Assembly (NCBI GenBank): GCA_963816265.1 | Contig: CAWFJQ010000003.1 | Coordinates: 1,681,620 to 1,745,619 of the forward strand | Source: Vicinamibacterales bacterium | GTDB taxonomy: Bacteria > Acidobacteriota > Vicinamibacteria > Vicinamibacterales > Vicinamibacteraceae | Direction of reading: 5' to 3' | DNA: 64,000 nt | Shown: in pieces, positions 6,934-47,091 of the stretch | Position numbering within the stretch: the stretch's first letter is position 1 | Layout of the letters: each line of letters opens with the position of its first letter | Notes under the pieces: model-generated | What the model saw: the letters and a program-made list of their open reading frames with translations, nothing else | Database searches by the model: none | What the model was told of the DNA's origin: nothing | Made by a program: the position numbers and the translations under genes

Positions 6934-6949
6934 AGCAAGAGTGCGGCCA
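6934..6949 (-). promoter_or_regulatory. Sigma-54 (-24/-12) promoter candidate upstream of the NMO-like gene.
   Basis: The reverse complement reads TGGCCGCACTCTTGCT against the consensus TGGCACG-N4-TTGCW, with correct GG/GC spacing. It is intergenic. The -12 GC is only 17 nt from ATG 6918, which leaves a very short leader. Confidence 0.35.
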
Positions 6950-7063
6950 ATGGGCGCGGGGCGGGAATCCCGAACACCTCGACGGCGGTCCGCAGGCCTG
7001 CCGCCGAACGCGGGGACTATCTCCGCATGACGCGGGAAATTCCCCTTCGCCGAGCCCCGCTCC

Positions 7064-9190
7064 TCAGTGCTCGGCCCGGCGCAGGGTCGACCGGATCCGG
7101 GCCAGGAACCGGTCGCCTTCGAGCGGCTTGCGGACGTAGTCGTTGGCTCCGGCGTCGAGCGACTGCACCTCCGTCTCGTCGCCCGCCGCCCCGGTGACGA
7201 CGACGACCGGCAGCAGACTGGTCGCGACGCGACCGCGCAGGCGGCGCAACACCTCGAGGCCGTCGATCCCCGGCATCGCCAGGTCGAGGACGATCAGCGA
7301 GACTGGCGGGCCGGACTCGACGCGGGCCAGCGCCTCGAGGCCGTCGGCAGCTTCCGAGACACGCATCCCCTGGCTGCGGAGCAGCGCCGCCGCCAACGCG
7401 CGCGACACGGGGTCGTCGTCCACCACCAGGATGTGCGCGGCGCTCTCCGGCTCGGCCGCCGGCGCATCCGCCTCGCCGAGCTCGCGGTCGATCTCCTCGA
7501 GGGTCGTCTCACCGGCCCGGACACGGGCCGCCGCCGCTTCGTGCAGCGACCGCATCCCGCCGGCGATTGCGGCGGCCTGCAGCGGCGACGCCGGCGCGCC
7601 GCCGATGATGGCGAGTTCCAGCGCCGGGCTCGCGACCATCACCTCGAGCAGCGGGATCCGGCCGTGGTAGCCGGTGTGGCTGCACGCCGCGCAGCCGATC
7701 GCCCGCACCACCGGCTCGACCCCGTAGCGCAAGGCGAGCCGCTGTTCGACCGGCGTCGCCGCGCCGCTGATCCGTTGGGCGCAGCGGGGGCAGATGCGGC
7801 GCACGAGCCGCTGCGCCGTCGCGCCGCGCAGCGTGCTGGCGATCTCGCCGCGCTCGACGCCGAGATCGGCGAGGCGGCCGACCGCGCCGACGGCGTCGTT
7901 GGTGTGCAGCGAGGCGAGCACGAGATGGCCGGTCAGGCTGGCCTGCACCGCGATGGCGGCGGTCTCGGCGTCGCGGATCTCGCCGATGAAGATGACGTCG
8001 GGATCCTGCCGCAGGATGGATCGCAACGCGGTGACGAAGGTGACGTCGCGCTTCGGCTCGACCTGGATCTGGGTCAGGCCGGGCAGCTCGTACTCGACCG
8101 GATCCTCGACCGTCATCACGTTCAGCTCGCCGGCCGGCATCTCGCGCAACGCCGCGTACAACAGCGTCGTCTTGCCGGATCCGGTCGGTCCGGTGACCAG
8201 CACGATGCCGTCGCGGTGGCCGAGCAGCGTCCGCAGCGGCGCCACCTCGCAGCTTTCGAGCGACAGGTCCTCGAGGCGCCGCGCGTTGCCCGGATCGAGC
8301 AGCCGGATGACCGCCTTCTCGGACTCGCGCGTCGGCACGGTCGACAGCCGCAGATCGATCGAGCGCTCGTCGATCCGGATGCGGGCCCGGCCGTCCTGCG
8401 GCCGCAGCCGGTCGGCGATGTCCATCTTGCCGATGATCTTGATGCGCGAGACGACCCGGTTCAGGATCGGCAGCGACAGCCGGGTGTAGGGCTGGAGCAC
8501 GCCGTCGACGCGAAACCGTACCCGGCCGCCGTCGCGGTCGGGTTCGATGTGGACGTCGCTGGCGCGCGCGTGGACCGCGTCGCGCAGGATCAGGCTGGTC
8601 AGGCGCATGATCGGCGCCGACTCGGCCTCGCGCGCGGCGACCGGCGCCGGGCCCGACTCCGTCTCGATGTGGACCGCCGACGCCAGACCCGCGCCGACGC
8701 TGCCGAGCAGCCGCTCGATGGCGCGGTCGGGCGCATAGTGAGCGTCGATCAGCTCCTGGATCGCGTCCGGCGGCGCCACCTCCAGCACCGGCCGCCGCCC
8801 AGTCACGAAGCCGACCAGGTGCTCGCCTTCGATGTCGAGCGGATCGGCCGCGGCGACGACGATCTCGTGGTCGCTCTCACGCAGGCCGATGAGGTGCCGC
8901 GCCCGCGCCAGCTTCTCGGGGATGAGGGCCACGGCCCGGGCCTGGATGGTGGCCAGGTCGGCGAGCCCAACATGGCGGCTGGCGGCGACCGCGGCGGCCG
9001 GCAGGGCCGGCGACACGCCGGCGGCCCGGGCGATCGTCCGCCACTGGTCGACGATGGTCGCGGCGGCCTCGAGCAGCGGCGCGTCACCGGTGAGAAGCCC
9101 GCTCTCGCGGGCGACCTCGAGCAGCCAGGGGGTGAGGTGGGCGTCGCGGGTCGGGTGGGCGGCGAGATCGTCGAGCGGGGATGTCGGCAT
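7064..9190 (-). CDS. GspE/PilB-family secretion ATPase fused to a C-terminal response-regulator receiver domain.
   Basis: Intact 708-aa ORF with these parts: a T2SSE N-domain; Walker A GPTGSGKTT; Asp box DPDVIFIGEIRD; LASLHTN; a tetracysteine CPRC..CAAC; then a REC domain (ILVVDDD..LIVLDLAMPGIDG..DYVRKP). Confidence 0.85.
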   Translation of the reverse strand: MPTSPLDDLAAHPTRDAHLTPWLLEVARESGLLTGDAPLLEAAATIVDQWRTIARAAGVSPALPAAAVAASRHVGLADLATIQARAVALIPEKLARARHLIGLRESDHEIVVAAADPLDIEGEHLVGFVTGRRPVLEVAPPDAIQELIDAHYAPDRAIERLLGSVGAGLASAVHIETESGPAPVAAREAESAPIMRLTSLILRDAVHARASDVHIEPDRDGGRVRFRVDGVLQPYTRLSLPILNRVVSRIKIIGKMDIADRLRPQDGRARIRIDERSIDLRLSTVPTRESEKAVIRLLDPGNARRLEDLSLESCEVAPLRTLLGHRDGIVLVTGPTGSGKTTLLYAALREMPAGELNVMTVEDPVEYELPGLTQIQVEPKRDVTFVTALRSILRQDPDVIFIGEIRDAETAAIAVQASLTGHLVLASLHTNDAVGAVGRLADLGVERGEIASTLRGATAQRLVRRICPRCAQRISGAATPVEQRLALRYGVEPVVRAIGCAACSHTGYHGRIPLLEVMVASPALELAIIGGAPASPLQAAAIAGGMRSLHEAAAARVRAGETTLEEIDRELGEADAPAAEPESAAHILVVDDDPVSRALAAALLRSQGMRVSEAADGLEALARVESGPPVSLIVLDLAMPGIDGLEVLRRLRGRVATSLLPVVVVTGAAGDETEVQSLDAGANDYVRKPLEGDRFLARIRSTLRRAEH

Positions 9191-9214
9191 GGGGAGCTCT
9201 CCGCCCGATCAGAG

Positions 9215-9230
9215 GGCAAGCTCCGTACCC
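9215..9230 (-). promoter_or_regulatory. Sigma-54 promoter candidate upstream of the GspE-REC gene.
   Basis: The reverse complement reads GGGTACGGAGCTTGCC, with correct GG/GC spacing. The -12 GC lies 26 nt from ATG 9190, with the SD GGAGAG in between. Confidence 0.4.
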
Positions 9231-9297
9231 ACGGGCGGCGCGTCCAGGCCGGCAGCCGTCGACCTGCGGCTGCATGAAACGGCTCGCGATTGGGTGG

Positions 9298-9669
9298 TCA
9301 GTCCGGCGGGAAGTTTTCGCTCCGCTGCGGGATTGTCCGCTCGGCGTCCCGCAGCATGATCAGGAGCATCCGCGACGCCTCCGGGGCGAGCACCGCGTGC
9401 GGCACGTTGGCGGGCATCAGCACGATCGTCTGCGGCGCTGTCCGCACCTCGACGCCGCCAATGGTCAGCGTCAGCGCGCCGGACAACGTCAGCGCCAGCG
9501 CGTCGAACGGCGCCGTGTGCTCCGAGAGCTCCTCGCCGGCATCGAACGCGAACAGCGTGATGTTGCCGGCCGCGGTGCGCGCCAGCACCCGGCTCGCGAT
9601 CCCCTGGGCGGTCGGCGTGACCAGTGACTCCAGCGTGAACAATTCTCCGGCCGGCAGCGTGCTTGCCAT
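9298..9669 (-). CDS. Cupin-domain protein.
   Basis: Start ATG 9669 is preceded by GGGGGAG. Reads MASTLPAGELFTLESL..ITLFAFDAGEELSEHTAPFDALALTLSGAL..VLMPANVPHAV. The upstream part of the 9298..9963 track ORF looks non-coding. Confidence 0.75.
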   Translation of the reverse strand: MASTLPAGELFTLESLVTPTAQGIASRVLARTAAGNITLFAFDAGEELSEHTAPFDALALTLSGALTLTIGGVEVRTAPQTIVLMPANVPHAVLAPEASRMLLIMLRDAERTIPQRSENFPPD

Positions 9670-9933
9670 GGTTACTCCCCCACCGCAGCACCGGCAGGCG
9701 TCCGATGATCGTCGAAGCTGTCCATGGTGAGGGCCCAGTCTGACGCCAGACGATGCGGTGTCAAGCGAAGAGTGATTCGCGCACCCGCTCAGGACAAGCG
9801 ACGCTGCGCCAGACGTGACGGATTCTCCGCCGTTCCGCAGGAATCCCCGGCCCTGAGGAATCTTCCGCGCGACGCGCCGACCGAGCCGTGGGCCGCGCTG
9901 GCTCGGCACGCCCGGGAGCGTCACCCCCGCGCA

Positions 9934-9949
9934 AGGCACGTCGCTTGCA
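9934..9949 (+). promoter_or_regulatory. Sigma-54 promoter candidate upstream of the lipoprotein-ubiB pair.
   Basis: Reads AGGCACGTCGCTTGCA. Its 15-mer GGCACGTCGCTTGCA is identical to the promoter upstream of the HPF-like gene at 47076-47091. It is intergenic and in the right orientation. Confidence 0.65.
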
Positions 9950-9961
9950 GCCGACCTCGCC

Positions 9962-10985
9962 ATGCTACGCCGCCAGGCTGGATGCGTCGGCCGTCGAATG
10001 CGGCGGGACCTTCACCACGGGCTCCTGGGCCTCGCGGCGATCGCGATGGCCGGCTGCCAGCCCAGCCCTGAACGGGCCGCGACGGGCGGTCGCGCCCACC
10101 AGCCCGTCATCCGCCACAGTGACGTCCGGCCGTGCCGGCGCCGAGGCCACGCCGGCAGCCACCGCTCGCCCGGTCCCACTGCCGCCGGCCGGAGGCTCGG
10201 CGTTCGGCGACCGCATCGCGTTCCCACCGCGCAACGAGCCGTTCCAGTTCCGGCAGGCGCTCGAGGAGAAATACCGGTTCGGCCTGGGACGCGGGCCGAC
10301 GGCGACCTTCGTCGACGTCGAGGGGGACATCGTCTGGACGCAGGAGTACCTGCGCTATCGCGTCAACGGCTGCGACCACGACACCGCCGCGGCACGCGTC
10401 TTCAGCCAGATCCGCAGCGGCGCCATCGCCCCGACGTGCGGCGAGGCCCCGGAGGGGATGGTCGCCTTTCCACCGCGCAACGAACCGTTCGCGTTTCGCG
10501 TCGAGCTCGAAGCGTTCTACCGCGACGCGCTCCAGCGAGGCCTGACGTCGACCTTCGTCGACATCGAGGGCGACATCGTGTGGACCCAGGAATACCTGCG
10601 CTACCGGGTCAATGGCTGCGAGCACGTGCAGGCGACGGTCAACGTCCTGCGCCAGATCGACGGCGGCGGCATCGCGCCGATCTGCGCCGGCGTCCTGAAC
10701 GGCGTCTGGAACGGGGTGATGCTCGACTACCCGGGCGGGCGCACGTTCCGGATGGAGCTGTCGATGATCGGCGATCGCGTCACCGGCCGGATCACCGGCG
10801 ACGGCACCGGCGGCGGCGGCTTCATGACCGGGACGTATCCGGGCAGCGGACCGGTCCACCTCGAGGCCGACTTCGGCGACGGCAAGCAGTACTTCGACGG
10901 GGACTTCGACGGCGCGCAGAAGATCCGGGGCACGACGACCTACAACCTTCGGCCGCCCCGCTACCGCTTCGAGATGACGCGATGA
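9962..10985 (+). CDS. Putative lipoprotein with two tandem 82-aa modules and a C-terminal Gly-rich domain; one apparent frameshift near 10060-10110.
   Basis: The frame of ATG 9962/9998 gives the lipobox leader MRRDLHHGLLGLAAIAMAGC. The body is in the 9888 frame: FPPRNEPFQFRQALEEKYRF..VDVEGDIVWTQEYLRYRVNGCDH.., repeated as FPPRNEPFAFRVELEAFYRD..VDIEGDIVWTQEYLRYRVNGCEH... The stop overlaps the ubiB ATG. Confidence 0.65.
10221..10712 (+). repeat. Intragenic tandem duplication, 2 x about 246 bp, inside the lipoprotein gene.
   Basis: TTCCCACCGCGCAACGAGCCG.. at 10221 recurs as TTTCCACCGCGCAACGAACCG.. at 10467. The protein modules are clearly homologous. Confidence 0.75.
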
Positions 10986-12680
10986 ACGCGGCGGCACCGA
11001 CCAGACGGCGGATCGGGCGGGCGGTGCACGTCCGCCGCTACACCGAGATCGTCGGCATCCTCGTCCGCTACGGCTTCGTCGACGTCGTCGACGCGCTGCA
11101 TCTGGGGCCCTACCTCGCCGCCGGGCGGCGGATGCTCTCGGCCTTCGGCCGTCGCGACCAGCCGGAGGCGAGCCGGGCCGTCCGCCTCCGCCTCGCGTTC
11201 GAGGCGCTCGGGCCGACGTTCATCAAGTTCGGCCAGGCCCTGAGCACGCGGGCGGATCTGCTGCCGGCCGAGGTCGTCGCCGAACTGACGCTGCTCCAGG
11301 ACAACGTGCCGCCCCTGCCGGCAGGCGCGGCCGAGCGGGCGATCGAGGAGGCCACCGGGCGCCGCGTCGAGGATCTCTTCCTGGCGTTCGACCCGCAGCC
11401 GCTGGCGGCGGCGTCGATCGCCCAGGTGCACCGGGCGACGCTGCCGTCCGGCGAGCTCGTCGCGGTCAAGGTCCGGCGGCCCGGCCTGGCCGCCGTCGTC
11501 GAAGCCGATCTCGGCGATCCTGGCCGACCTGGCCGCGCTGGCGGAGCGCCATTGGCCCGACGCCGCGCTCTACAGCCTGGGCGAGCTGGTGGCCGAGTTC
11601 GCCCGGACCATCCGCCGCGAGCAGGACCTCGTGCGGGAGGGACGGCTGATCGAGCGGGTCGCGGCGCAGTTCGCCGGCGACGCCACCATCCGCCTGCCGC
11701 GGATCCACTGGCCGCTGAGCCGCGCGGCGGTGCTCACGATGGAGTTCCTGGACGGCGTGAAGGTGAGCGCCGTCGGCACCGACGAAGCCCCCGGCCTCGA
11801 TCGCCGCCTGGTGGCGCGGCGCGGCGCCGACGCGGTGCTGCGGCAGGTGCTGATCCACGGCTTGTTCCATGCCGACCCGCATCCCGGCAACCTGCTCGTC
11901 CTGCCGCAGAACGTCGTCGCCTTCGTCGACTTCGGCATCGTCGGCCGCCTCGATCGCCGGATGCGCGACCGGCTCGCCGAGATGGTCATGGCGATCCATG
12001 CCCACGACGCCGATCGGCTCGCCGGCATCGTCGTCGGCGTCGCCACGCCGCTGCGTCCGGTCGACGGGGCGGCGCTGTCGCGCGACCTCGACGAGATGCT
12101 GGACCAGTACGCGGGCCTGGCGCTGGGGCAGCTCTCGCTGCGGGCGCTGTTCGGGTCGATCACGGAGGCGATGGCCCGGCACCGCCTGAAGCTGCCGGCC
12201 GATCTCCTGCTGCTGATCAAGTCACTGACGACAATCGAGGCGGTCGGCCGTCAGCTCGACCCGGACTTCGAGATCGTGGAATACGCCACGCCGTTCGTGA
12301 CGGCGCTGCTCTCGGAGAAGCGGAGCCCGACGGCGGTGGCGCGCCGGACCGCCCGCGCCAGCCGCCGCGCCCTCCGCGCGATGGGAGCGGCGGCGACCGA
12401 CCTGGCCGAGATCACCCGACGCGTCCGGCGCGAGGGCGTCCAGGTGCAGTTCGTCCACCGCAACCTTGATCACTTCGTCCGCGAGATGGATCGGTCGAGC
12501 AATCGCCTCAGCTTCGCGATCGTCATCGCCGCGATCCTGATCGGCTCGTCGATCATCGTCCTGGCCGGCGCCGGTCCGCAGCTGCTCGGCTACCCGCTCC
12601 TCGGCCTGGCCGGGTTCCTGAGCGCCGCGATCCTCGGCCTCGGCCTCGCCGTGGGCGTCCTCCGCTCCGGGCGTCTGTGA
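10982..12680 (+). CDS. ubiB: UbiB/ABC1-family atypical kinase; one apparent frameshift near 11500-11590.
   Basis: Starts MNAAAPTRRRIGRAVHVRRYTEIVGILVRYGF..LGPTFIKFGQALSTRADLLP..AAASIAQVHRATLPSGELVAVKVRRPG. It continues in the 11589 frame with EFLDG..HADPHPGNLLV..FVDFGIVGRL and two C-terminal TM helices. Confidence 0.85.
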
Positions 12681-12707: not shown

Positions 12708-15700
12708 TCAACGATCGCGCGCGGGACGCGGCCGCCGGGCCAGCGCCTCGTTCAGCCGGGCGTCGTGGCGGTAGATGTCGTCGGCGAAGTAGACCTCGCC
12801 GTCCGCCGAGACGACGGCCGCGGTCGTGTAGAAGAGCACCACCCTGATCGGCGCCGCCAACTCCACCCGTGACGACACCGCGCCGGCCATCGCCGCCTCG
12901 ATCCGGGCCCGGTCCCAGCCCGTCTCGTCGCGCAGCACCCACTCGGCCAACGCCGTCGGGTCCTCGACCCGGACGCAGCCGTGGCTGAAGTCCCGGCGCT
13001 GCTGCTGGAACAACCCGACCGCCGGCGTGCCGTGCAGGTAGACGTCGGAGGCGTTGGGGAAGACGAATTTGACAAGGCCGAGCGCGTTGCCCGGGCCCGG
13101 TCGCTGGCGCAGCCGGAGCGTCCCGGCTCGCAGCCCGGCGAGTGCCGCCGCTGTCGCCGGGACCGCGTCGGCCTCGTCGCTCTGGCCGTCGACGATCTCG
13201 TAGTCGGCCGGGAGCCGCCGGGTCGGATCGCGCTCGAGTTCCGGCAGCATCTCCTTGAGCAGGATCGATCGCGGCACGTTCCAGTACGGCCGGAAGATCA
13301 CCGTTCGCATCAGGGCGGTGAACACCGGCGTCTCGGTGAGCAGCGCCCGTCCGACGATGACCCGCATCCGCAGCGCCGGTCGGGACGCGTCGGCGCCATC
13401 CCACGCCCCGAGCCGGAACATCGGGATGTTCAGCGCGACGATGCGCTCGTCGCCGGCATCGGGCAACCAGCGCAGCCGCTCGAGCGACAGCTCGATCTGG
13501 CGGATGCGCGCTCGCACGGGCACCGCCAGGGCGGCCCGTGTCGCACGCCCAAGCACACCGTCCGACGCCAGGCCGTGACGCGCCTGGAAGCGGCACACGC
13601 CAGCCACGAGCGTGTCGTCGTAGACGCCGGCGTCAGCGGCCGGCGGCGCATCCGCCGGCAGATCGCCGAACGCCGCCAGGCGCTGGCGCAGGGCGTTGGC
13701 CGTCTCCAGCCGGTCGCTCGGGCGGATCGCCTGCGGTACTGAAGGCCAGGCCGTGTCGGGCAGATCGCCGATGGCACGATACCGGGCCAGTTGGCGACGC
13801 AGCGCCTGGTACTGCGGGAGGGAAGGCGCCAGGGTGGCGGCAACGGCCGGCACGTCGTGCGCGGCCAACGCCGCCTGCAGGAGACCGACGAACGCATGGC
13901 GTTCGGGCTCGGCGTCGAGCGAGATGCCGAGCGACCGGGGATCGACGCGGCCCCGATGGACGTGACGGAAGTAGCGCAGCATCCCGGCGCTCAGCCGGAC
14001 GTCGAAGGCGGCCAGCCGTTCGGCGTCCGGCGCCGGCGCCGCGGCCACCGCCGCGGCCAGCTCGCGCAACGTGTCCAGGCCGTAGTCCGCCGGATCGAGC
14101 CCATCATCCGGCGCTGCGGCGAGCACGCCGATCGCCTCGCGCGCGTCTGTGGTGAGCCGTCCGGAGGCGTCGCTCCACAGGGCCAGGCCCGGTCCCGCAG
14201 CGTAGAGCGCGTCGAGCTCCGCTCGCTCGGACGCGGTGAGGCCAGCCGGGATCTGGCCAGCCGGGATCTGGCCCGTCGGGATCTGGCACGTCGGGCCGGC
14301 CCAGGCACTCGGTGGGAGCGACAGCGTCACGGCCAGCACGAGCAGGGCGTCCCGGGTCGAACGCGGCCAGCGCTTGACCGCTTGCCCCACCAGGGCCGGC
14401 AGGGCCGCCAGGCCGACGACGACCAGCCACTCGGTCCCATCGAGCGGCGTCAGTCCGATCGTCGACGCGATGCCGGGCACGGCGACCGACAGCCACTGCA
14501 GCCCCACCGCAACCGCGACGGCGAGCAGCGCGTAGGGATTGGCCAAGGCCCGCGACGGGTGCAGCACGTGGTGCGGGCTCCGGGCGTTGCCCAGATGGAA
14601 GATCTGGGTCAGGCCCAGCGTCATGAAGCAGACCGTCGTCGCGTGCCCCGGAGCACGGCCCAGCGCCCAGAGGAAGGCGGCCAGCGCCACGACCGTGATG
14701 AGCACGGCATAGAAGACGATCGAGCCGACGAACGAGGCGGACAGCAAGGCCTCGCGCGGATCCCGCGGCGGGCGCTTCATGACGTCGTGATCCGCCGGCT
14801 CCAGCGCCAGCGCCAGCGCCGGGAACGTGTCCGTGACCAGGTTCAGCCACAGGATCTGCAGCGGCAACAGCGGCAGCGGCAGCGCGGCCAGGCCCGCGAC
14901 CGTCAGCACGAGCACCTCGGCGAGGTTGCAGCTGAAGAGATAAAAGACGAACTTGCGGATGTTGTCGTAGACGACCCGGCCTTCCTCGACGGCGGCCGCG
15001 ATGGTCTCGAAGCGGTCGTCCTGCAGGACGATGGCGGCGGCCTCCTTCGCGACGTCGGTGCCGCGCCGGCCCATGGCGACGCCGACGTCCGCCTGCTTGA
15101 GGGCGGCGGCATCGTTGACGCCATCGCCCAGCATCGCGACCACGTCGCCCTGCTCCTGCAGCGACTGGACGACGCGCAGCTTGTCTTCCGGCGCGATGCG
15201 GCTGAACGCGCCCGCGGCGCTGATCCGCTCGCGCAGCTCGGCCGGCGACAGCCCCGCCAGCTCGCGGCCGTCGATCACCTCCGAGACGGCGCCGACGATC
15301 CCCAGCTCCCGGCCGACGGCGGCGGCCGTGTTGCGCTGATCACCGGTGAGCATGACGGTCCGCATGCCGGCCGCTCGCAGCCGGACGATCGTCTCCCGCA
15401 CGCCGTCGGCGGGCGGATCCATCAGCCCGACGAACCCGATGAAGGTCAGGCCGCCGAGGTGTGACTCGTCCGGCTGATCCACCGGGCCGCCCGCGACACC
15501 GAGCACGCGGAGGCCGCCGGCGGCGAGCCGCTCGTTGACGGCGACCAGCTCCGCCCGCCCAGCCTCGTCCAACGACTCGAGGCGACCGTTCCGGCGAACG
15601 TGCCGGCAGAGATCGACGATGCGGCCGGGCGCGCCCTTCACGCTGGCGACGACGGCGCCCGCTTCCCGACCGAAGGTGGCGGCCAGCTTGCGCTCGCTCG

Positions 15701-17030
15701 AGAACGGCACTATGCCAATCGGGGCGGCACCGGTCGCGTCGGCGAGACCGAGGCCGGCCGCTTCGGCGCCGCGCACCAGAGCGCGATCGACGGGATCGTC
15801 GACCGCGCCCGCGTCATCGAGGTCGGCGGCGGGCGGCCGACTGGCCCGGACCGCCACCCGCATCGCCTCCGCGCACGCCGCCGCGGGCGGCTCGCCGGTA
15901 CGGCGGCCCGGCTCGAACACCGCGTCCGGCGTCCAGACCGTGACCAGGGTCATGTCGCCGGAGGTGAGCGTTCGCGTCTTGTCGCTGCACACGACGGTGA
16001 CCGAGCCGAGGGCCTCGACGGCGGCGAGACGGCGGACCAGCGCGCGGCGCGCGGCCATGCGTCGCAGACCGATGGCGAGCGCGATGGTGGCGACCGCCGG
16101 CAGCGCCTCCGGCACCGCGGCCACCGCCAGCGCAATCCCCATCTCGAGCACGAGCGGCAGCGGCTGGCCGTGCAGCAGGTTGAGGCCCGAGGCGGCGGCC
16201 GTCATCGCGAGCACCAGCCAGACCAGGCGGCGGCCGAGCTCGTCGAGACGGCGCTCGAGGGGCGTCGGCGCCTCGGGAATCGCCGCGACGAGCGTGCTGA
16301 TGCGGCCCAGCTCGGTGCGGTCACCGGTCGCGGCGACGACCGCGCGGCCGGTGCCGGCGATGACGGTCGTGCCCTTGTAGATCATGGTGACGCGGTCGGC
16401 GAGCGGGACGCCGGGGTCGAGCACCACCGTCGCGTGCTTCGATACCGGCATCGACTCGCCGGTCAGGGCCGCTTCCGAGACGCGCAGGTCATGCGTGGTC
16501 AGCACCCGCGCGTCGGCCGGGACGCTCTGCCCGCGGCCGACCTCGATCACGTCGCCCGGGACCAGCATCTGCGCGTCGACGATCGCCGTGACGCCGTCGC
16601 GCACGACCGCGCAGCGTGAGACGTCGAGCCCCAGCAGGGCATGCATGGCGCGCCGGGCCCGCAGGTCGATGGTGAAGCCCAGCGCGGTGTTCAGCACCAG
16701 GACCGCGCCGATGGCGGTGGCCTCGGCGAGATCGCCGATGGCGAGCGAGATCGCCGTCGCGGCGATCAACAGCCACACCACGATGCTGCGCAGCTGGGCG
16801 CGGAGGATTTGGCTCGCCGAGACCGGGCTGGCCGGGGCGAGCCGATTCGGCCCGCCGCACGCCAGGCGTTCCGCCGCGACGTCCTGCGTCAGACCCTCCG
16901 CACTCGAGTCGAGGCGCGACAGGGCCTCGTACGGGGTCAGGGTGTGCCAGGCGACGACGGGCGGTGCGGTGCCGGGGCTCACGGCGGCCACAGTCGGCTC
17001 AGGAGCAGGCGGCAGGTACGGTTCCGGCAC
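12708..17030 (-). CDS. Single 1440-aa ORF: an N-terminal P-type (type II, Ca/Mg-like) cation ATPase joined in frame to a C-terminal YcbB/LdtD-like L,D-transpeptidase.
   Basis: ATPase part: cation-ATPase N-domain, TGES, phosphorylation loop CSDKTRTLT, MLTGD, GDGVNDAAAL and TM helices. The junction reads ..ALVGQAVKRWPRSTRDALLVLAVTLSLPPSAWAGP and looks like a Sec signal peptide. After it come a PG-binding domain (VCRFQARHGLASDGVLG) and a YkuD domain with the catalytic SHGCVRV. Confidence 0.8.
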   Translation of the reverse strand: MPEPYLPPAPEPTVAAVSPGTAPPVVAWHTLTPYEALSRLDSSAEGLTQDVAAERLACGGPNRLAPASPVSASQILRAQLRSIVVWLLIAATAISLAIGDLAEATAIGAVLVLNTALGFTIDLRARRAMHALLGLDVSRCAVVRDGVTAIVDAQMLVPGDVIEVGRGQSVPADARVLTTHDLRVSEAALTGESMPVSKHATVVLDPGVPLADRVTMIYKGTTVIAGTGRAVVAATGDRTELGRISTLVAAIPEAPTPLERRLDELGRRLVWLVLAMTAAASGLNLLHGQPLPLVLEMGIALAVAAVPEALPAVATIALAIGLRRMAARRALVRRLAAVEALGSVTVVCSDKTRTLTSGDMTLVTVWTPDAVFEPGRRTGEPPAAACAEAMRVAVRASRPPAADLDDAGAVDDPVDRALVRGAEAAGLGLADATGAAPIGIVPFSSERKLAATFGREAGAVVASVKGAPGRIVDLCRHVRRNGRLESLDEAGRAELVAVNERLAAGGLRVLGVAGGPVDQPDESHLGGLTFIGFVGLMDPPADGVRETIVRLRAAGMRTVMLTGDQRNTAAAVGRELGIVGAVSEVIDGRELAGLSPAELRERISAAGAFSRIAPEDKLRVVQSLQEQGDVVAMLGDGVNDAAALKQADVGVAMGRRGTDVAKEAAAIVLQDDRFETIAAAVEEGRVVYDNIRKFVFYLFSCNLAEVLVLTVAGLAALPLPLLPLQILWLNLVTDTFPALALALEPADHDVMKRPPRDPREALLSASFVGSIVFYAVLITVVALAAFLWALGRAPGHATTVCFMTLGLTQIFHLGNARSPHHVLHPSRALANPYALLAVAVAVGLQWLSVAVPGIASTIGLTPLDGTEWLVVVGLAALPALVGQAVKRWPRSTRDALLVLAVTLSLPPSAWAGPTCQIPTGQIPAGQIPAGLTASERAELDALYAAGPGLALWSDASGRLTTDAREAIGVLAAAPDDGLDPADYGLDTLRELAAAVAAAPAPDAERLAAFDVRLSAGMLRYFRHVHRGRVDPRSLGISLDAEPERHAFVGLLQAALAAHDVPAVAATLAPSLPQYQALRRQLARYRAIGDLPDTAWPSVPQAIRPSDRLETANALRQRLAAFGDLPADAPPAADAGVYDDTLVAGVCRFQARHGLASDGVLGRATRAALAVPVRARIRQIELSLERLRWLPDAGDERIVALNIPMFRLGAWDGADASRPALRMRVIVGRALLTETPVFTALMRTVIFRPYWNVPRSILLKEMLPELERDPTRRLPADYEIVDGQSDEADAVPATAAALAGLRAGTLRLRQRPGPGNALGLVKFVFPNASDVYLHGTPAVGLFQQQRRDFSHGCVRVEDPTALAEWVLRDETGWDRARIEAAMAGAVSSRVELAAPIRVVLFYTTAAVVSADGEVYFADDIYRHDARLNEALARRPRPARDR
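14241..14297. repeat. 15-bp tandem repeat (about 3.8 copies) encoding QIPxG repeats just after the internal signal peptide.
   Basis: Reads GCCAGCCGGGATCTG GCCAGCCGGGATCTG GCCCGTCGGGATCTG GCACGTCGGGCC. On the coding strand this translates as CQIPTGQIPAGQIPAG. Confidence 0.85.
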
Positions 17031-17496
17031 TGGCCGTGGCCGAATGCCGCGCCGGCGTGCCGACGCTGATCCCGGCGAGCACGTCGAGCACGGCGATCCG
17101 CAGCGGATCGGTGCCCGGCGCCTGGGCGGCCCACCGCACGATGTCGTCGATCGACACGATGCCGACCAGGACGCCCCCGTCCCCGAGCACCGGCAGGCGC
17201 CGCACGTGGTACTGCACCATCGTCAGCAAAGCCACGACGCTGTCGTCGTCCGGGGCGCAGCCAATCACCGGCTGCGTCATCACGTTGCGGGCCACCAGCG
17301 TCGACGCCGGCACGTCCCGTCTGCCGAGCGCGATGCAGGCATCACGGTCGGTGACGACGCCGACGGCCTCGCCGCGCTCGTTGACGACCGGCACGATACC
17401 GCACCCGTAGGTGCTCATGGTGTCGATGATGGAGCCCAGGTTGGTGTCGGGACCGCAGGTCCTGACCGTTCCGCCCATGATGGCCTTGATCTTCAT
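16999..17496 (-). CDS. CBS-pair domain protein.
   Basis: ATG 17496 is preceded by AAGGGAG. Reads MKIKAIMGGTVRTCGPDTNLGSIIDTMSTYGCGIVPVVNERGEAVGVVTDRD..VMTQPVIGCAPDDDSVVALLTMVQYHVRRLPVLGDGGVLVGIVSIDDI. The 3' end overlaps the ATPase start by 32 nt. Confidence 0.8.
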   Translation of the reverse strand: MKIKAIMGGTVRTCGPDTNLGSIIDTMSTYGCGIVPVVNERGEAVGVVTDRDACIALGRRDVPASTLVARNVMTQPVIGCAPDDDSVVALLTMVQYHVRRLPVLGDGGVLVGIVSIDDIVRWAAQAPGTDPLRIAVLDVLAGISVGTPARHSATASAGTVPAACS

Positions 17497-17529: not shown

Positions 17530-17545
17530 TGCAAGTCCGCCTCCA
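17530..17545 (-). promoter_or_regulatory. Sigma-54 promoter candidate upstream of the CBS and ATPase-Ldt genes.
   Basis: The reverse complement reads TGGAGGCGGACTTGCA: TGG and TTGCA at consensus spacing. It is intergenic, with the -12 element about 35 nt from ATG 17496. Confidence 0.35.
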
Positions 17546-17692
17546 AGGCCGCCCAGGGACGCCCCGTGGGCCAAGGGGTGCCGGCCCGCTGCCCCCGCCT
17601 GGCCGCTGCGCGCTATTCCCCACCCGTCGGGAACTTCCACGAAGGAACGCCCGCTACTGGGATCGCCGGCCGGCCGGCGGTGTGGCTCGTCG

Positions 17693-35473: not shown

Positions 35474-36563
35474 ATGCGATCGGGCGCCCGGATGGATCTG
35501 CCAGCCGGCATCGAACAGGCGCGCCTGCTGGCGCAGTTCAAGTACGCCCTCGATCAGGCCGCCATCGTGGCCATCACCGATCGCGGCGGGCGCATCACCT
35601 ACGCCAACGATCGCTTCTGCGCCATCTCGCAGTACGCCCGGGAGGAGCTGCTCGGGCAGGATCATCGCCTGGTCAATTCAGGCCTCCACTCGCACGAGTT
35701 CATGGCCGACCTGTGGCGGACCATCACCGGCGGCCGGGTCTGGCGCGGCGAGCTCCGCAACCGGGCCAAGGATGGCTCGCACTACTGGGTCGACACCACC
35801 ATCGTGCCGCTGCTCGACGAGAGCGGCCGATCGCAGCAGGACCCTGGCGATCCGCTACGACGTGACCCAGCGCAAGGCGGCCGAGATCAAGCTGCGGGAA
35901 CAGGCGGCGCTCGCCAAGCTCGGCGAGCTCGCCGCGATTGTGGCGCACGAGGTGCGGAACCCGCTCGCCGGCCTCCGCGGCTCGCTCCAGGTGCTGGGCA
36001 CACGCATCCCGCCCGGCATGCGGGGCGGCGAAATCATCGGCGCCATGGTGGAGCGCATCGACGCCCTGGCCGACCGCGTCTCCGACATCCTGATGCTGGC
36101 GGCGGCACGCGAGGCGCGGCTGCGGCCAGTGCGTCTCGGCCCGATCCTCGTCGAGGCGGCGATGAGCGCCCACGCCGCCGTGCCGGGCGTGCCGATGCCG
36201 GTGCTGGCCGAGGCCAATCCCGAGGTCGTCGCCGATCCGGAGATGTTGCGCGAGCTGTTGCTGAACCTGGTGATGAACGCCTGTCAGGCGTCGCGGACGC
36301 ACACCAGCGAGGCCGTCCGCGTCCAGGTCACGACCGCTGACGGCTCGTGCCGGATCGAGGTGCTCGATTGCGGCAGCGGCATCGATCCCGGCATCCGCGA
36401 CCGCATCTTCGAGCCGTTCTTCACCACCAAGCATGGCGGGACCGGACTGGGCCTGGCCATCGTCAAGCGCCTGGTCGACCTCCAGGGCGGCGGCGTGACC
36501 CTCGGCGACCGCGAGGGCGGCGGCGCCTGCGCCCGGGTGACGCTCCCCATCCACCAGCGCTGA
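35474..36563 (+). CDS. Soluble PAS-domain sensor histidine kinase; one apparent frameshift near 35830-35850; the start is uncertain (35435, 35474 or 35492).
   Basis: PAS domain: [68 protein letters not shown]. The next frame reads [11 protein letters not shown].., then the H-box [13 protein letters not shown], the N-box [12 protein letters not shown], and the G-boxes DCGSGI and GGTGLGLAI. Confidence 0.8.
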
Positions 36564-36635: not shown

Positions 36636-38000
36636 ATGCGCAATGCCACGATCCTCGTCGTCGACGACGAGCAGCTCGTTCGGTGGTCCCTCAGCGAGCG
36701 ACTGCGGGCCGACGGCTACCGCGTCGTCGAAGCCGCCACCGGCCAGGACGCCCTCGATCGCGCCGCTGACGGCGTCGACCTGGTGCTGCTCGACTACAAG
36801 CTGCCCGACACCGACGGCGTGACCGTGCTGCGCAAGATCAAGGAGCAGGACCCGGACATCCTCGTCATCCTGCTCACCGCCTACGCCACCGTCGAAACCG
36901 CGGTCGAGGCGATGAAGATCGGCGCCTACCACTTCGCCAACAAGCCCTTCAACCTCGACGACATCTCGCTGACGGTCGCCAAGGCGCTCGAGACGACGCA
37001 GCTGCGCCGCGAAGTGCGGATGCTGCGGGCCAGCCAGGCCCAGCCCTACGGCTTCGACCGCATCGTCGGCGAATCGCCGGTGATGGGCGCGCTGCGGGAG
37101 CTGCTCCGCAAGGTGGCCGCCAGCCCGGCGTCGACCGTGCTCCTGACCGGCGAGAGCGGCACCGGCAAGGACCTGGCCGCCAAGGTCCTCCATTTCAACA
37201 GCCAGCGCGCCAGCCGGCCGTTCGTCAACATCACCTGCTCGGCGATCCCCGAGGCGCTGCTCGAAAGCGAGCTGTTCGGTCACGAGCGTGGGGCGTTCAC
37301 CGACGCGCGCCAGCAGAAGCGCGGGCTGTTCGAGCAGGCCGACGGCGGCACCGTCTTTCTCGACGAGATTGGCGAGATGGTGCCGGCCCTCCAGGCCAAG
37401 CTGCTGCGCTTCCTCGAAGAGAAGTCGTTCAAGCGCGTCGGCGGGGCGCACGACATCACGGTCGACGTGCGCGTGGTGGCGGCCACCAACCGCAACCTCG
37501 AGGAACAGGTGCGCGCCGGCCAGTTCCGCGAGGATCTCTTCTACCGGTTGAACGTACTGCCGATCGTCCTGCCGTCGCTGCGGGGCCACCTCGACGACGT
37601 CCCGGCCCTGGTCGACTTCTACATCGATCAGTTCAACCGGGAGTTCCGCAAGAGCGTGCGCGGCACGTCGCCCGACGCAGCCCGCGATCTCCGCGCCTAC
37701 GGGTGGCCGGGCAATGTCCGTGAAGTGCGCAACGCCGTCGAGCGGGCCATGCTGCTCGCCGACGGCGACTGGCTCGAGCCACACGACTTCCCCGCCGTCG
37801 CGGTGCGCCGTCAGGCCGGGCACGACATCGCGCTGCCGGCCGACGGCGTCGACCTCGAGCAGCTCGAGAAGAGCCTGGTCGTCCAGGCCCTCGAGCGAAG
37901 CGGCCACAACCAGACGCGCGCCGCCGCGCTCCTCGGTCTCAACCGCGATCAGATCCGCTATCGCATCGAAAAGTTCGGCTTGATGAAGCCGGCCTCGTAG
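36636..38000 (+). CDS. Sigma-54-dependent response regulator (NtrC/AtoC family enhancer-binding protein).
   Basis: Intact 454-aa ORF. REC domain ([20 protein letters not shown]). AAA+ domain ([48 protein letters not shown]). C-terminal Fis-type HTH. Confidence 0.9.
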
Positions 38001-38031: not shown

Positions 38032-38197
38032 CTAGTCCCCTGGAACCGTGATAGCTGGGACAAGTCCCGGAGCGCGGCGCCCCGCGGGCAAGGCGCGACG
38101 AGGAAGGATATTGGGCATATTCGACCGAGGAGCAACGCCGCCCCCGGGGATGCCCCGCCCGGGAATTGTTCTAGAAATCACGGTTCCAGGGGACTAG
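38032..38197. repeat. 166-bp nested-palindrome repeat element, copy E1.
   Basis: The arms are a perfect 21-bp inverted repeat: CTAGTCCCCTGGAACCGTGAT (38032-38052) and ATCACGGTTCCAGGGGACTAG (38177-38197). The core is conserved with the copies at 5319 and 56597. It lies between convergent genes, and the right arm contains the TAG stop of the 38194 gene. Confidence 0.85.
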
Positions 38198-38640
38198 GCA
38201 GCCGGGGTGTCCCGGTGGAGCTGGCCGGTGACGAGCGCGACCACAGCGGCCGAGTCGACCGGCTTGGCGACGACCGTCACCCCCTCCAGACGGCTGGCGG
38301 AGACATCGCCGCCCGAGTCGAGGACGAGGCACGGCGCCACTCCGGTCTGGGCCCGCAGGTCGCGAAGGCTGGCCGCGTCCCGGCCCTCGAGCATCTCACC
38401 GTCGACCATCACCAGATCGGGCGCGACAGCCCCGCGCAGGGCGGTCGAGGCCTCGGCCAACGACCCGCACGGCACGACGTCGACAGCGCAGCCGCGCAGC
38501 GACTCGGCGACGAACCAGCGATACAGCGCCTCCCGATCGACGAGCAGCACCGTCGCGGCAGCGGAAGGGACAGCAGGGGGATCCCGCGAGCGCGGATGGT
38601 CCGGCACGATCAGCCTCACGGCGTCCGACGCAACAGACAT
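38194..38640 (-). CDS. Stand-alone receiver-domain protein.
   Basis: ATG 38640 follows GAGGTGG. Reads ..TVLLVDREALYRWFVAESL..PDLVMVDGEM..VVAKPVD. Confidence 0.6.
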   Translation of the reverse strand: MSVASDAVRLIVPDHPRSRDPPAVPSAAATVLLVDREALYRWFVAESLRGCAVDVVPCGSLAEASTALRGAVAPDLVMVDGEMLEGRDAASLRDLRAQTGVAPCLVLDSGGDVSASRLEGVTVVAKPVDSAAVVALVTGQLHRDTPAA

Positions 38641-38768
38641 GCCACCTCGCTGGCGCAGCCTGGGACGCCAGCTGCCCGCTGGTCGCGTGATGCGCCACGA
38701 CCTGGCCGCGAGAAAGCTCGCCGAGGCGGGGATTTTTGCGACGCCCTCGGGCGGCTGCGTCGGGTGGC

Positions 38769-45628: not shown

Positions 45629-46111
45629 ATGCCGGCGATTCGAGCGATCGTCGAGACCTGGGCCGCCTTCTACGCCAACTCGCCCGCCGCCCGCAGCGCC
45701 CTCACCTTCACCCACGTCGGCGCGCTGGTCGTCGGCGGCGGCTCCGCGATCGCGGCCGACCTGGGCACGGTCGGCGCGCTCCGCCGCGAGGCTCCCGCGC
45801 TGCGCGCCGAGCTGGAGCGGCTCCACGCGACCCACCGCCTGGTCACGACCAGTCTCGGGCTGGTCGTGTTGAGCGGCATCCTGCTCGTGCTCGCCGACCT
45901 CGACGCCTACCTCGCGTCGACGGCGTTCTGGATCAAGATGGGCCTGTTCGCCGCCCTCATCGTGAACGGCGCGATGGTGGTCGCGGCGTCGGCCCCGGCG
46001 CGCCAGGACAGCCCGCGCAACCGTGCCCGGCTGCGTCTGGCTGCTGTCGCCAGCCTGACGCTGTGGCTGGCGACCCTCCTCCTCGGCACGGTGGTGCCCA
46101 ATGTCCTGTAG
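45629..46111 (+). CDS. Hypothetical 4-TM membrane protein.
   Basis: Reads MPAIRAIVETWAAFYANSPAARSALTFTHVGALVVGGG.. The gap to the upstream gene is 1 nt, and it overlaps the Rieske gene. Confidence 0.55.
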   Translation: MPAIRAIVETWAAFYANSPAARSALTFTHVGALVVGGGSAIAADLGTVGALRREAPALRAELERLHATHRLVTTSLGLVVLSGILLVLADLDAYLASTAFWIKMGLFAALIVNGAMVVAASAPARQDSPRNRARLRLAAVASLTLWLATLLLGTVVPNVL

Positions 46112-46586
46112 CGAGCGGTCGCGCCGCGATTTCCTGCACCATGGAGCCTGCGCACTGCTCACGGCTGGCGCGCTGGGCCTGTCGTCGCTCGACGTCTCGG
46201 CCCTCCCGGTGTCGTTCGTGACCGCCGTGACCGCCGCGGGAGAGCGTCGCTATCCGCTTCCCGCCGCCGACGGCGTGAGCATCGATCGGGTGGCGCAGGT
46301 CATCCTCGTCCGGGCCGGGCGGAGCGTCTACGCGATGGCGCTCGCCTGCCCGCACCAGAACGCGGCGGTCAAGTGGGTGGAGAAAGAACACCGGTTCCAG
46401 TGCTCGAAGCACGACTCGCGCTACACGCCCGATGGCAGCTACACCTCGGGGCGGGCGACGCGGAACCTCGATCGTTTCCCCGTCCGGCTGGAGGGCGATA
46501 CCGTCGTCGTCGGCACCGATCACGTCTTCCGCTCGGATCAGGACAAGGGCGCCTGGAGCGCGGCTCACGTCGAGCTGCCGGCGTGA
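46101..46586 (+). CDS. Tat-exported Rieske [2Fe-2S] domain protein.
   Basis: Twin-arginine leader SRRDFLHHGACALL. Cluster ligands ACPHQ (CxH) and QCSKHDS (CxxH). Confidence 0.8.
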   Translation: MSCSERSRRDFLHHGACALLTAGALGLSSLDVSALPVSFVTAVTAAGERRYPLPAADGVSIDRVAQVILVRAGRSVYAMALACPHQNAAVKWVEKEHRFQCSKHDSRYTPDGSYTSGRATRNLDRFPVRLEGDTVVVGTDHVFRSDQDKGAWSAAHVELPA

Positions 46587-46622
46587 CCGTCCGGCTCTGC
46601 TGATTCGCCCTCGCGGCCGCCG

Positions 46623-46997
46623 TTACTGACGGACCGCCGCGCGCTGCCGCACCCTGGCCAGCCGGCGGCCGGCGTAGGTCTGCAGGATCCGGCCGGCCGA
46701 CTCGAACGCCTCGTGCATCGCGTGCAGCCAGCGATATTCGGCGATCGGCGGGCGTTGCCCATCGGGCATCGCGGTTCCCTCCGGCTCGGATTCGTACAAC
46801 GCGACCAGCTGTTCGTTGGGAACGCTCACTTCGACGACGACCCGCAGCATCCCGGCGTCATTCGGCTCCAGGAGCACGCGGCAATCGACGATACGGCCAC
46901 AGAACCGATCGAGGCGGCCGGCCTGGTCACGCGCGTACTCCTCGAGATCGGCCCGCGCCGACATGTGGCGGAAGGTGACGTAGACGGGCGTGGACAT
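46623..46997 (-). CDS. HPF/RaiA-like ribosome-associated (sigma-54-modulation family) protein.
   Basis: Reads MSTPVYVTFRHMSARADLEEYARDQAGRLDRFCGRIVDCRVLLEP..LRVVVEVSVPNEQLVA... This is a beta-alpha-beta-beta-beta-alpha pattern typical of the family. Assigned from motif memory. Confidence 0.55.
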   Translation of the reverse strand: MSTPVYVTFRHMSARADLEEYARDQAGRLDRFCGRIVDCRVLLEPNDAGMLRVVVEVSVPNEQLVALYESEPEGTAMPDGQRPPIAEYRWLHAMHEAFESAGRILQTYAGRRLARVRQRAAVRQ

Positions 46998-47075
46998 GAT
47001 GGCCCTCCCTCGGATCGTGGCGTGTCGCGCGCTGACTCGGCCGCGAGGCCGGAGAGCGCCCGCAGCCGCATGACG

Positions 47076-47091
47076 TGCAAGCGACGTGCCC
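47076..47091 (-). promoter_or_regulatory. Sigma-54 promoter candidate upstream of the HPF-like gene.
   Basis: The reverse complement reads GGGCACGTCGCTTGCA, matching 11 of the 12 defined positions. It is intergenic and about 80 nt from ATG 46997. Confidence 0.65.

Follow-up and report, generated by a model that had tools for sequence, protein, structure and literature searches.

The subject of this report is a 64,000-nucleotide stretch of the genome of a Vicinamibacterales bacterium (GenBank assembly GCA_963816265.1, contig CAWFJQ010000003.1), referred to below as the window and numbered from its first letter. Between 6.9 and 47.1 kb it carries a series of sequences resembling the −24/−12 promoter elements of sigma-54 (RpoN), a recurrent palindrome, and genes for a histidine kinase and an NtrC-family activator. 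The window has a G+C content of 71%. Its Zn-dependent alcohol dehydrogenase (ADH; 30092–31204) finds its best matches, at 77–84% amino acid identity, on contigs of metagenome-assembled genomes of Vicinamibacteria and Vicinamibacterales (Acidobacteriota), the Burkholderiales homologues being 65–70% identical. Coding potential was assessed with a codon-usage model giving the maximal coding segments of each frame, and the non-coding gaps were taken from these segments and not from open reading frames (ORFs), owing to apparent frameshifts.

An NtrC-family enhancer-binding protein is encoded at 36636–38000 (+), where a first-pass annotation, made by a model from the sequence alone, had placed an NtrC-type activator. 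It combines a REC domain, in which the phospho-acceptor Asp is present, with a Sigma54_activat domain (PF00158, E=1.5e-68), an AAA lid and an HTH_8 domain. Immediately upstream, at 35492–36563 (+), lies the gene for a cytoplasmic PAS-HisKA-HATPase histidine kinase (HisKA, HATPase_c) with no membrane segment. The same annotation had listed 13 −24/−12 motifs in front of gene starts and had read them as a dense local RpoN regulon served by this activator. This reading is supported by the oriented enrichment of the elements, by the palindrome pairs that accompany them and by the recurrence of both in Vicinamibacteria contigs.

Sigma-54-like elements and paired palindromes

All 13 of the previously listed 16-mers are present with the coordinates, strands and sequences given for them, and the 15-mer GGCACGTCGCTTGCA said to be common to two of them is indeed identical at 9935–9949 and 47090–47076. 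A matrix based on the consensus TGGCACG-N4-TTGCW gives 12.3–15.9 bits to the four sites that had been called strong and 6.3–12.7 bits to the other nine. The list was nevertheless incomplete, two further elements at 38644–38629 (−) and 35460–35475 (+) having been overlooked; the second of these adds a fourth divergent pair (35339/35460) to the three that had been rightly recognized. Across the 64 kb, the best matrix matches are 9934(+) at 15.9, 27110(−) at 15.6, 38644(−) at 14.8 and 47091(−) at 14.6 bits, followed by 35460(+) at 12.8, 28288(+) at 12.7 and 29500(+) at 12.3 bits. The GG and GC dinucleotides stand 10 nt apart in 14 of the 15 elements, the exception being 35460.

One rival reading holds that all these matches arise by chance at 71% G+C and that the palindrome is a repeated or mobile sequence without a role in transcription. 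GG-N10-GC is indeed very common at this G+C, and the bare pattern GGCACG-N5-TGC is not significant by itself (5 found against 2.15 expected), while a mis-spaced pattern, with one N too many and the canonical spacing not tested, gave 33 occurrences against 28.6 expected. Position and orientation speak against such a reading. Within 43 non-coding gaps with 25-nt padding (8.5 kb in total), matches of at least 8 bits directed at a gene start number 14, against 3.1 expected from dinucleotide shuffles (~5-fold), and those of at least 12 bits number 5, against 0.29 (~17-fold); none of 1000 shuffles attained the observed count at either threshold. The density amounts to 1.49 matches per kb of oriented intergenic strand as against 0.125 per kb of the remaining, mostly coding, sequence (12-fold), so that the comparison suggested by the first-pass annotation yields enrichment over coding and shuffled sequence alike. 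Further, all the oriented intergenic matches fall within 6.9–47.1 kb.

In the 220 nt upstream of the candidate promoters, boxes like GGAATnTTCCGCG recur in pairs. Expectation-maximisation on eleven upstream regions resolved these into a 16-bp imperfect palindrome, with the consensus TGCGGAAwTTTCCGCR over 37 sites from the window and its relatives; we know of no characterised activator whose site it matches. We treat the paired palindromic boxes as a candidate upstream activator sequence (UAS) and give distances from element to UAS. In a leave-one-out evaluation, seven of the eleven regions hold a box that no more than 6 of the 62049 background positions equal; a further three are borderline, and in the region of 27110 there is none. 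When the whole window is scanned, paired boxes, 18–22 nt apart, turn up in ten intergenic regions only, and the isolated single boxes within genes are without an adjoining promoter. Such a pair lies 39–83 nt from 14 of the 15 elements, weak ones included (12 of the 13 on the earlier list), and four of the UASs are common to divergent pairs, namely 17545/17693, 22907/23055, 28128/28288 and 35339/35460. Every one of the 14 flanks pointing at the start of a target gene has a −24/−12 match (6.3–15.9 bits), whereas the five flanks facing no gene start reach at most 2.9 bits and a flank facing a cupin gene 0.8.

A de novo search, allowing one site per sequence in the 14 gene-facing flanks of the palindromes and using no sigma-54 prior, returned the motif GGCACGnnnCTTGCA, that is, GGCACG-N3-CTTGCA. 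It coincides with the matrix site in 13 of the 14 flanks, with a log-likelihood of 148.6 against 111–114 in shuffled flanks. We rejected the notion that the CTTGCA boxes are sigma-70 or leaderless signals, as the de novo motif requires the GG 10 nt upstream and a consensus scan of 6.8–47 kb, which has little power in such a genome, found no sigma-70 consensus promoter. A match at 44944(+) was likewise set aside as a promoter, being without both the GG and an enhancer.

A narrower rival would grant function only to five to seven high scorers (9934, 27110, 38644, 47091, 28288, 29500 and perhaps 28128) and would regard 17545, 22907, 17693, 23055, 35339, 6949 and 9230 as chance GG-N10-GC matches, their genes being transcribed from sigma-70 promoters under a palindrome-binding regulator. 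The low scores of these sites (6.3–9.9 bits), the roughly three chance matches of at least 8 bits expected in the intergenic set and the different choice of the de novo search at ppsA all speak for it. However, each weak site lies 43–81 nt from a palindrome pair and is directed at a start codon, and the de novo motif takes in the weak sites. Outside the regulon regions, a score of 6.3 bits is attained in 3.8% of the 95-position windows and one of 8.4 bits in 0.8%, and the chance per flank is 0.2–3.8%, while all target-facing flanks are positive and no non-facing flank is; the weakest elements are for this reason unlikely singly, and very unlikely jointly, to be chance matches. Nor would an activator that joins HTH_8 to an AAA+ sigma-54 domain be expected to act at sigma-70 promoters, of which the scan found no consensus example. 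We consider this narrower rival quite improbable.

Recurrence in related genomes

Related loci were retrieved by means of the ADH gene, and the palindrome matrix, trained on the window only, was applied to 11 loci of Vicinamibacteria type. In these, 15 of 22 strong palindromes have a sigma-54 match of at least 9 bits within 20–115 nt, against a null rate of 4.4% (binomial P ~6e-16). The distances from palindrome to element range over 36–90 nt, and divergent pairs occur in four of the loci (L002, L004, L006 and L069). The first genes downstream encode universal stress proteins (USPs; single or in tandem), ADH, a cytochrome c′-like protein, a CBS protein and the activator, as well as an apparent OsmC-like protein, lipoproteins and a multihaem cytochrome. 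More specifically, sigma-54-like elements in the related loci precede homologues of the window's USP, ADH and cytochrome c′-like genes and of the genes at 18313–18840 and 28321–28551.

Orthologues of the activator, 70–80% identical, lie within 10 kb of the ADH gene in six loci (L002, L003, L006, L008, L009 and L010). In a further locus with a 91% identical activator (L081), the modules stand before a USP gene, a YceI-SRPBCC-PAS operon and a DUF5335 unit, and also at a divergent acetyl-CoA hydrolase/activator pair. The activator's own gene has a module upstream in the window, L002 and L081; in L003, the −24/−12 element alone was detected there. Judging from these contigs, the layout of the predicted island is conserved across Vicinamibacteria. 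It is kept, along with shared target families, where the surrounding DNA is not, in genomes whose ADH is 77–84% identical. Enrichment, the fixed geometry relative to the palindrome in the window, other genomes and the de novo motif together effectively refute the reading by which all the matches are due to chance.

In L081, the closest relative for which DNA was available, the surroundings of the activator (5709–7603, 12881–15134 and 18201–20291) hold genes for haem proteins of the NapC/NirT and cytochrome c552 types and for a cupredoxin, together with NosZ-propeller-like genes, a Crp-family regulator and a ScdA/hemerythrin gene. This setting of anaerobic respiration and nitrosative stress fits a low-oxygen role.

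Another contig, from the JGI database, has the same gene order as the window: USP, ADH, TIM-barrel protein, unknown protein, SRPBCC protein, PAS kinase and activator. Its kinase is intact at 375 residues, which suggests that the frameshift seen in the window's kinase is an assembly error. At about 20 points in the window a conserved gene resumes in a different reading frame, examples being 46–3373, 11475–11518, 19559–19578, 22819–22865, 23563–26067 (five junctions), 27646–27653, 35841 and 41904. The genes affected include ubiB, ppsA (at its N-terminus), the kinase, the second P-type ATPase and a DUF1552/ankyrin region. Given the intact kinase orthologue in the syntenic contig, these breaks probably reflect indels introduced in long-read assembly and not pseudogenes.

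The individual candidate promoters and their predicted targets

The roughly 15 promoters would serve about 25 target genes, whose families are assigned by Pfam unless stated otherwise. Distances to start codons are counted from where the 16-mer ends on its 3′ side up to the start codon that we judged most plausible; bit scores of the UASs are those of their boxes, and the leave-one-out values are counts among the 62049 background positions. The NMO gene (5500–6918, −) is preceded by TGGCCGCACTCTTGCT (6934–6949, −; 9.2 bits), 15 nt before the ATG at 6918. This site, which the de novo search also picked, is 81 nt from the UAS box at 7031 and, if the weaker box at 7010–7027 is taken instead, 60 nt from that one; the UAS (7010–7046; 17.2 bits; leave-one-out 1/62049) consists of GCGGGGACTATCTCCGCA (7010–7027) and CGCGGGAAATTCCCCT (7031–7046). 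A GspE/T2SSE ATPase fused to a REC domain (7064–9190, −) has GGGTACGGAGCTTGCC (9215–9230, −; 9.9 bits) 24 nt before its ATG and 73 nt from the UAS at 9304/9326, whose two boxes (9304–9341) score 10.3 and 11.1 bits with a borderline leave-one-out value of 26/62049.

The top match of the window, AGGCACGTCGCTTGCA (9934–9949, +; 15.9 bits), precedes a lipoprotein gene and a UbiB/ABC1 kinase gene (9962–12680, +), with a start codon 12 or 48 nt downstream. It is 64 nt from a UAS (9816–9869) with boxes at 9816 and 9854 (15.4 and 17.9 bits) and a third, seen by eye, at about 9833. A cupin gene (9298–9669, −) faces this UAS from the other side; it has no −24/−12 element there (best 0.8 bits) and, although so placed, does not seem to belong to the regulon. 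A match at 9668(−), TGGCAAGCACGCTGCC, was dismissed as coding sequence, since it runs over the start codon of the cupin gene.

The weakest element, TGGAGGCGGACTTGCA (17530–17545, −; 6.3 bits), lies 33 nt before the ATG of a CBS protein (16999–17496, −), which is followed by a P-type ATPase (12708–16991, −). It is 61 nt from its UAS (17607–17643; 12.0 and 12.0 bits; 3/62049) and was picked de novo as well, its score level being that met in 3.8% of the 95-position windows. The same UAS is 49 nt from the divergent CGGCATCGCTCTTGCG (17693–17708, +; 8.4 bits), which stands 36 nt before the ATG at 17745 of a unit of two proteins (17745–18840, +) without a Pfam match; homologues of the second resemble multi-pass membrane proteins. 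The ORF at 12708–16991 is a single, uninterrupted one of 1427 codons in which the P-type cation ATPase is complete at residues 1–875 and is followed, at residues 925–1354, by Scaffold, PG_binding_1 and YkuD L,D-transpeptidase domains. It would be either a true fusion or two genes joined through a lost stop codon or a frameshift.

Ahead of ppsA (20441–22865, −), TGGCACCGGACGCGCA (22892–22907, −; 7.0 bits) lies 26 nt before the ATG at 22865 and 63 nt from a UAS (22971–23004; 15.4 and 15.0 bits; 1 and 3/62049). On the other side, 50 nt away, is GGGAAGGATTCTTGCG (23055–23070, +; 8.7 bits), 25 nt before the ATG at 23096 of a cytochrome c gene that is followed by a second P-type ATPase gene (23096–26067, +). 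The element TGGCACGTCCTGTGCA (27095–27110, −; 15.6 bits) precedes by 23 nt the ATG at 27071 of a secreted protein with a signal peptide, and its core is that of a USP promoter in L010.

A HemG-like flavodoxin (27574–28057, −) has GGGCCCATCCATTGCA (28113–28128, −; 10.8 bits) 55 nt before its ATG at 28057 and 50 nt from a UAS (28179–28214; 15.7 and 10.6 bits; 0/62049). The divergent GGGCATACGGCTTGCT (28288–28303, +; 12.7 bits) is 73 nt from this UAS and precedes the ATG of a small gene by 17–23 nt; the latter is followed by one for a weakly cytochrome c′-like protein (28321–29359, +, for the two), recognized at an E value of 3e-4, under the Pfam cut-off. The small gene itself (28321–28551) had been labelled a wHTH protein, a label that finds no backing in Pfam or NCBIfam, neither of which gives a match. 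Antisense to the flavodoxin gene and directed into its 3′ end, a 16-mer at 27328–27343 (+), TCGCACGACGCTTGCA, matches the 15-mer of 9934 and 47091 at 13 of 15 positions, with CG replacing the invariant GG; promoter decay, a sequencing error or chance may account for it.

The USP gene (29586–30083, +; Usp) and the ADH gene (30092–31204, +; ADH_N, ADH_zinc_N) follow CGGCACGGCACATGCA (29500–29515, +; 12.3 bits), which lies 70 nt before the USP ATG at 29586 and 83 nt from its UAS (29381–29416; 12.6 and 15.1 bits; 6/62049). An imperfect hairpin at 29526–29551 (+), TCGAGTGCGGAC GCA GTCCGCATCGA, is situated in the 70-nt leader after the predicted transcription start and could be a regulatory or stabilising 5′ structure. 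An operon for SRPBCC, unknown and xylose-isomerase-like TIM-barrel proteins (31260–35302, −) is preceded by CGGATGGGATCTTGCA (35324–35339, −; 8.9 bits), 21 nt before the ATG at 35302 and 43 nt from a UAS (35383–35419; 12.1 and 18.1 bits; 0/62049). Across this UAS, at 40 nt, it is mirrored by the −24/−12-like TGGCTCGATTCTTGAT (35460–35475, +; 12.8 bits), which was picked de novo and lies 16 nt before the ATG at 35492 of the kinase–activator operon.

Past the activator, a small REC-like protein (38194–38550, −) has TGGCATGTCTGTTGCG (38629–38644, −; 14.8 bits) 78 nt before its ATG at 38550 and 62 nt from the UAS pair 38707/38725 (38707–38740; 11.0 and 13.4 bits; borderline, 26/62049). Between these two convergent genes lies a 166-nt element (38032–38197) with 58-nt terminal inverted arms, 78% complementary, which may act as a hairpin terminator in both directions or represent a miniature inverted-repeat element; matches at 38041/38188 were rejected as promoters, being arms of this inverted repeat. 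The last element, GGGCACGTCGCTTGCA (47076–47091, −; 14.6 bits), stands 78 nt before the ATG at 46997 of the HPF-like gene (46623–46997, −; Ribosomal_S30AE E=6.6e-7) and 39 nt from a UAS (47131–47164; 16.3 and 10.7 bits; 0/62049) formed by the near-perfect palindrome CGCGGAATGTTCCGCA and a second box. Directly past this promoter comes a metal/drug efflux cluster (47167–53729, −) with a CDF transporter, an AcrB-type RND pump, a HlyD-type adaptor and an outer-membrane factor; its G+C content is lower (0.67–0.69), and it may mark the edge of the island.

In about half of the cases, the promoter stands 15–26 nt from the start codon, with similarly short distances of 22–25 nt before USP genes in the relatives. 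The first-pass annotation was also right in placing the −12 GC of six sites (9230, 22907, 23055, 27110, 28288 and 35339) 23–28 nt before a plausible ATG. If transcription begins ~11 nt past the element, around half of the predicted leaders would measure only ~5–16 nt; in such short leaders the Shine-Dalgarno sequence would be at the extreme 5′ end or, as for the NMO and kinase genes, absent.

The kinase and the activator

The PAS domain of the kinase has its PDB matches in 3EWK (E=5.4e-55 over 92 residues), Aer (8DIK, 2.4e-19) and NifL PAS1 (2GJ3, 3.1e-13), and it matches the NifL model at 2.8e-19. The 3EWK structure shows the PAS region through which Methylococcus MmoS binds FAD; MmoS, Aer and NifL are all FAD-binding redox sensors (PMC9668731). 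As the PAS domain of the kinase is closest to those of flavin redox sensors, its input is most likely a redox or oxygen signal.

The activator falls below the cut-offs of the NCBIfam equivalogs against which it was compared (AtoC, NtrC, ZraR, the PEP-CTERM regulator PrsR and NtrX), with 459 against 714 bits for AtoC, 398 against 559 for NtrC, 390 against 503 for PrsR and 385 against 760 for ZraR. Its best family and structure matches are AtoC, NtrC and ZraR and the PDB entries 4L4U and 1NY5, annotated as NtrC-family regulators, which we take to be Aquifex NtrC4 and NtrC1. Homologues with at least 78% identity number more than 100, named sigma-54-dependent regulators of Vicinamibacteraceae or Vicinamibacteria at NCBI and members of the AtoC/NtrC family at JGI. 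The loop expected to contact sigma-54 reads GAFTDA, not GAFTGA. This variant is kept in seven related sequences, six at 70–80% identity and one (L069) at 51%, and in all the activator orthologues (70–91% identical) of the related loci. GAFTDA is among the variants compatible with activation and is carried by DVU2106 in the Desulfovibrio regulome study (PMC4641369). Surveys that require an exact GAFTGA would overlook this activator.

A predicted sigma-54 regulon island

We propose, with a probability of about 0.8, that the segment from 6.9 to 47.1 kb is a regulon island in which some 15 enhancer-dependent sigma-54 promoters and about 25 genes are served by the local two-component activator. On this model, the kinase would sense the redox or oxygen status of the cell through its flavin-type PAS domain and, as the adjacency of the genes and their domain architectures suggest, would phosphorylate the REC domain of the activator. 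The activator would then bind the paired 16-bp palindromes, present as two to three boxes ~18–22 nt apart in ten intergenic regions, and its AAA+ domain with the GAFTDA loop would remodel the sigma-54 holoenzyme at −24/−12 elements 39–83 nt away. Four of the enhancers are predicted to drive divergent pairs, one of which includes the kinase–activator operon and would provide for positive autoregulation. Since the gene set resembles low-oxygen and dormancy regulons, the output is likely to be an adaptation to oxygen or energy limitation. The mechanism as such would be canonical, while the regulon itself, with its own activator orthogroup and a new palindromic enhancer, appears to be previously undescribed; our literature searches found no sigma-54 regulon described for Vicinamibacteria or Acidobacteriota.

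Several points weigh against this proposal. The frequencies in the sigma-54 matrix are approximate, having been set from the consensus with an eye to published compilations and not taken from a published count table, and the palindrome matrix was trained on the regions it describes, which the leave-one-out evaluation and the other genomes offset. In the borderline enhancer modules at 9304, 9816 (in leave-one-out) and 38707, ~0.07 chance matches are expected per region. Among the elements, 22907 is the least secure assignment, because the de novo search favoured 22924 in the ppsA flank, and the −12 box of 35460 reads TTGAT, with GA in place of GC; the kinase gene downstream of the latter is interrupted by the apparent frameshift near 35841. 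The 5–6-nt leaders of the NMO and kinase genes are unusually short for sigma-54 and depend on the start codons chosen.

Upstream of 27110, no palindrome above background occurs within 170 nt, where there are only trivial repeats, and the best UAS score is 1.7 bits in leave-one-out or 4.9 natural-log units under the full model. Promoters sharing its core in L006, L009 and L010 have palindromes, in a variant with 17-bp spacing, with nothing comparable upstream of 27110. This promoter would have either a degenerate enhancer or another activator to serve it. The rpoN gene is found neither in the 64-kb window nor in the related loci; a regular expression for the RpoN box had no match when the window and 80 loci (~20 kb per genome) were translated in all six frames, an uninformative result. 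Its absence from the genome is unlikely, because a conserved sigma-54 activator is present and sigma-54 is nearly universal among diderm bacteria with lipopolysaccharide (PMC3162934).

Lastly, co-localisation alone ties the local activator to the palindrome. Promoters and enhancer could accordingly be real and yet answer to one or more activators encoded elsewhere, the local pair being merely a target. The need of 27110 for something else is clear, and a single contig of 34620 bp is reported to carry two activator paralogues (P0005 and P0045). Against this stands the recurrence of the activator orthologue beside palindrome–promoter modules in eight loci (L002, L003, L006, L008, L009, L010, L069 and L081), as does the module at the activator's own gene in the window, L002 and L081. 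The window, moreover, encodes no other sigma-54 activator. We regard control from elsewhere as unlikely and prefer the locally encoded activator as the regulator of the island.

If so, a sensor, an activator, a DNA site, 15 promoters and about 25 targets can be named as a testable regulon for a poorly studied yet abundant soil lineage, and the palindrome and the GAFTDA activator can be used to predict regulons over Acidobacteriota metagenomes. The arrangement suggests that persistence-type stress genes, which in other phyla are under Fnr/Anr or DosR control, can sit under tight, enhancer-dependent control with zero background. The very short predicted leaders also bear on translation initiation in Acidobacteriota.

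Comparison with known systems

A precedent for individual targets comes from a survey of Planctomycetia, in which UspA-domain proteins and protein E of the type II secretion system are among the predicted sigma-54 targets (PMC12316311), just as USP and GspE-REC units stand under −24/−12 elements here. That survey, however, concerns another phylum, describes no enhancer or activator, does not mention Acidobacteriota and admits only activators with an exact GAFTGA, by which a GAFTDA activator would be filtered out.

In its general build, the island resembles NtrC-type two-component systems such as NtrB/NtrC, AtoS/AtoC, ZraS/ZraR and Aquifex NtrC1/NtrC4. It shares with them the REC-AAA+-HTH_8 order, the kinase gene immediately upstream, tandem palindromic sites, −24/−12 promoters and autoregulation, which for the island is a prediction. 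It differs in that its activator is under the equivalog cut-offs and has the GAFTDA loop and a palindrome of its own, and in that genes of stress and low-oxygen type take the place of nitrogen, acetoacetate or zinc targets.

On the sensory side, the kinase PAS domain is very close to PAS-A of MmoS, from the MmoS/MmoQ–MmoR system of Methylococcus capsulatus, and shows similarity to those of Aer and NifL (PAS1). Sigma-54-dependent transcription is likewise the output of MmoS and NifL, through MmoR and NifL–NifA, respectively. The island kinase differs in being a short, soluble protein with a single PAS domain, for which flavin binding is predicted, and in having a direct partner in a REC-type activator; the targets of the island, too, are unrelated to methane monooxygenase or nitrogenase.

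In content, the closest parallels are the low-oxygen-activated (lxa) locus of Burkholderia cenocepacia and the DosR dormancy regulon of Mycobacterium tuberculosis, with which the island shares clustered small units under one motif and genes for USPs, Zn-dependent ADH, cytochrome c, P-type ATPase and NMO. The DosR regulon also takes in CBS-domain and HPF-like proteins. The lxa locus, with which the overlap is striking, comprises USPs, Zn-ADH, cytochrome c, a cation ATPase and a 2-nitropropane dioxygenase, with one motif per unit, and its overlap with the mycobacterial DosR regulon has been noted (PMC3721108). The regulatory apparatus is nonetheless different in each case: lxa uses an Anr/Fnr-type TGA-N6-TCA motif, CRP-family regulators and promoters that are not of the sigma-54 type, and DosR is a NarL-type regulator acting at sigma-70 promoters, whereas the island combines sigma-54 with an AAA+ activator. 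Neither the motif nor the regulator of the lxa/DosR type is that of the island, whose shared motif is TGCGGAAwTTTCCGCR with a −24/−12 element. By this analogy, the island would be at most a functional analogue of lxa and DosR and not a member of their kind. More tentatively, and with somewhat less than even confidence, we suggest that Vicinamibacteria may run a DosR/lxa-like programme for low oxygen and dormancy, made up of USPs, ADH, PpsA, cytochromes, P-type ATPases and a ribosome hibernation factor, wholly by way of sigma-54, a flavin-PAS kinase, a GAFTDA activator and a hitherto undescribed palindrome, with many near-leaderless mRNAs (leaders of ~5–16 nt). If true, this would constitute an independent, enhancer-dependent route to hypoxic persistence across a class of mostly uncultured bacteria.

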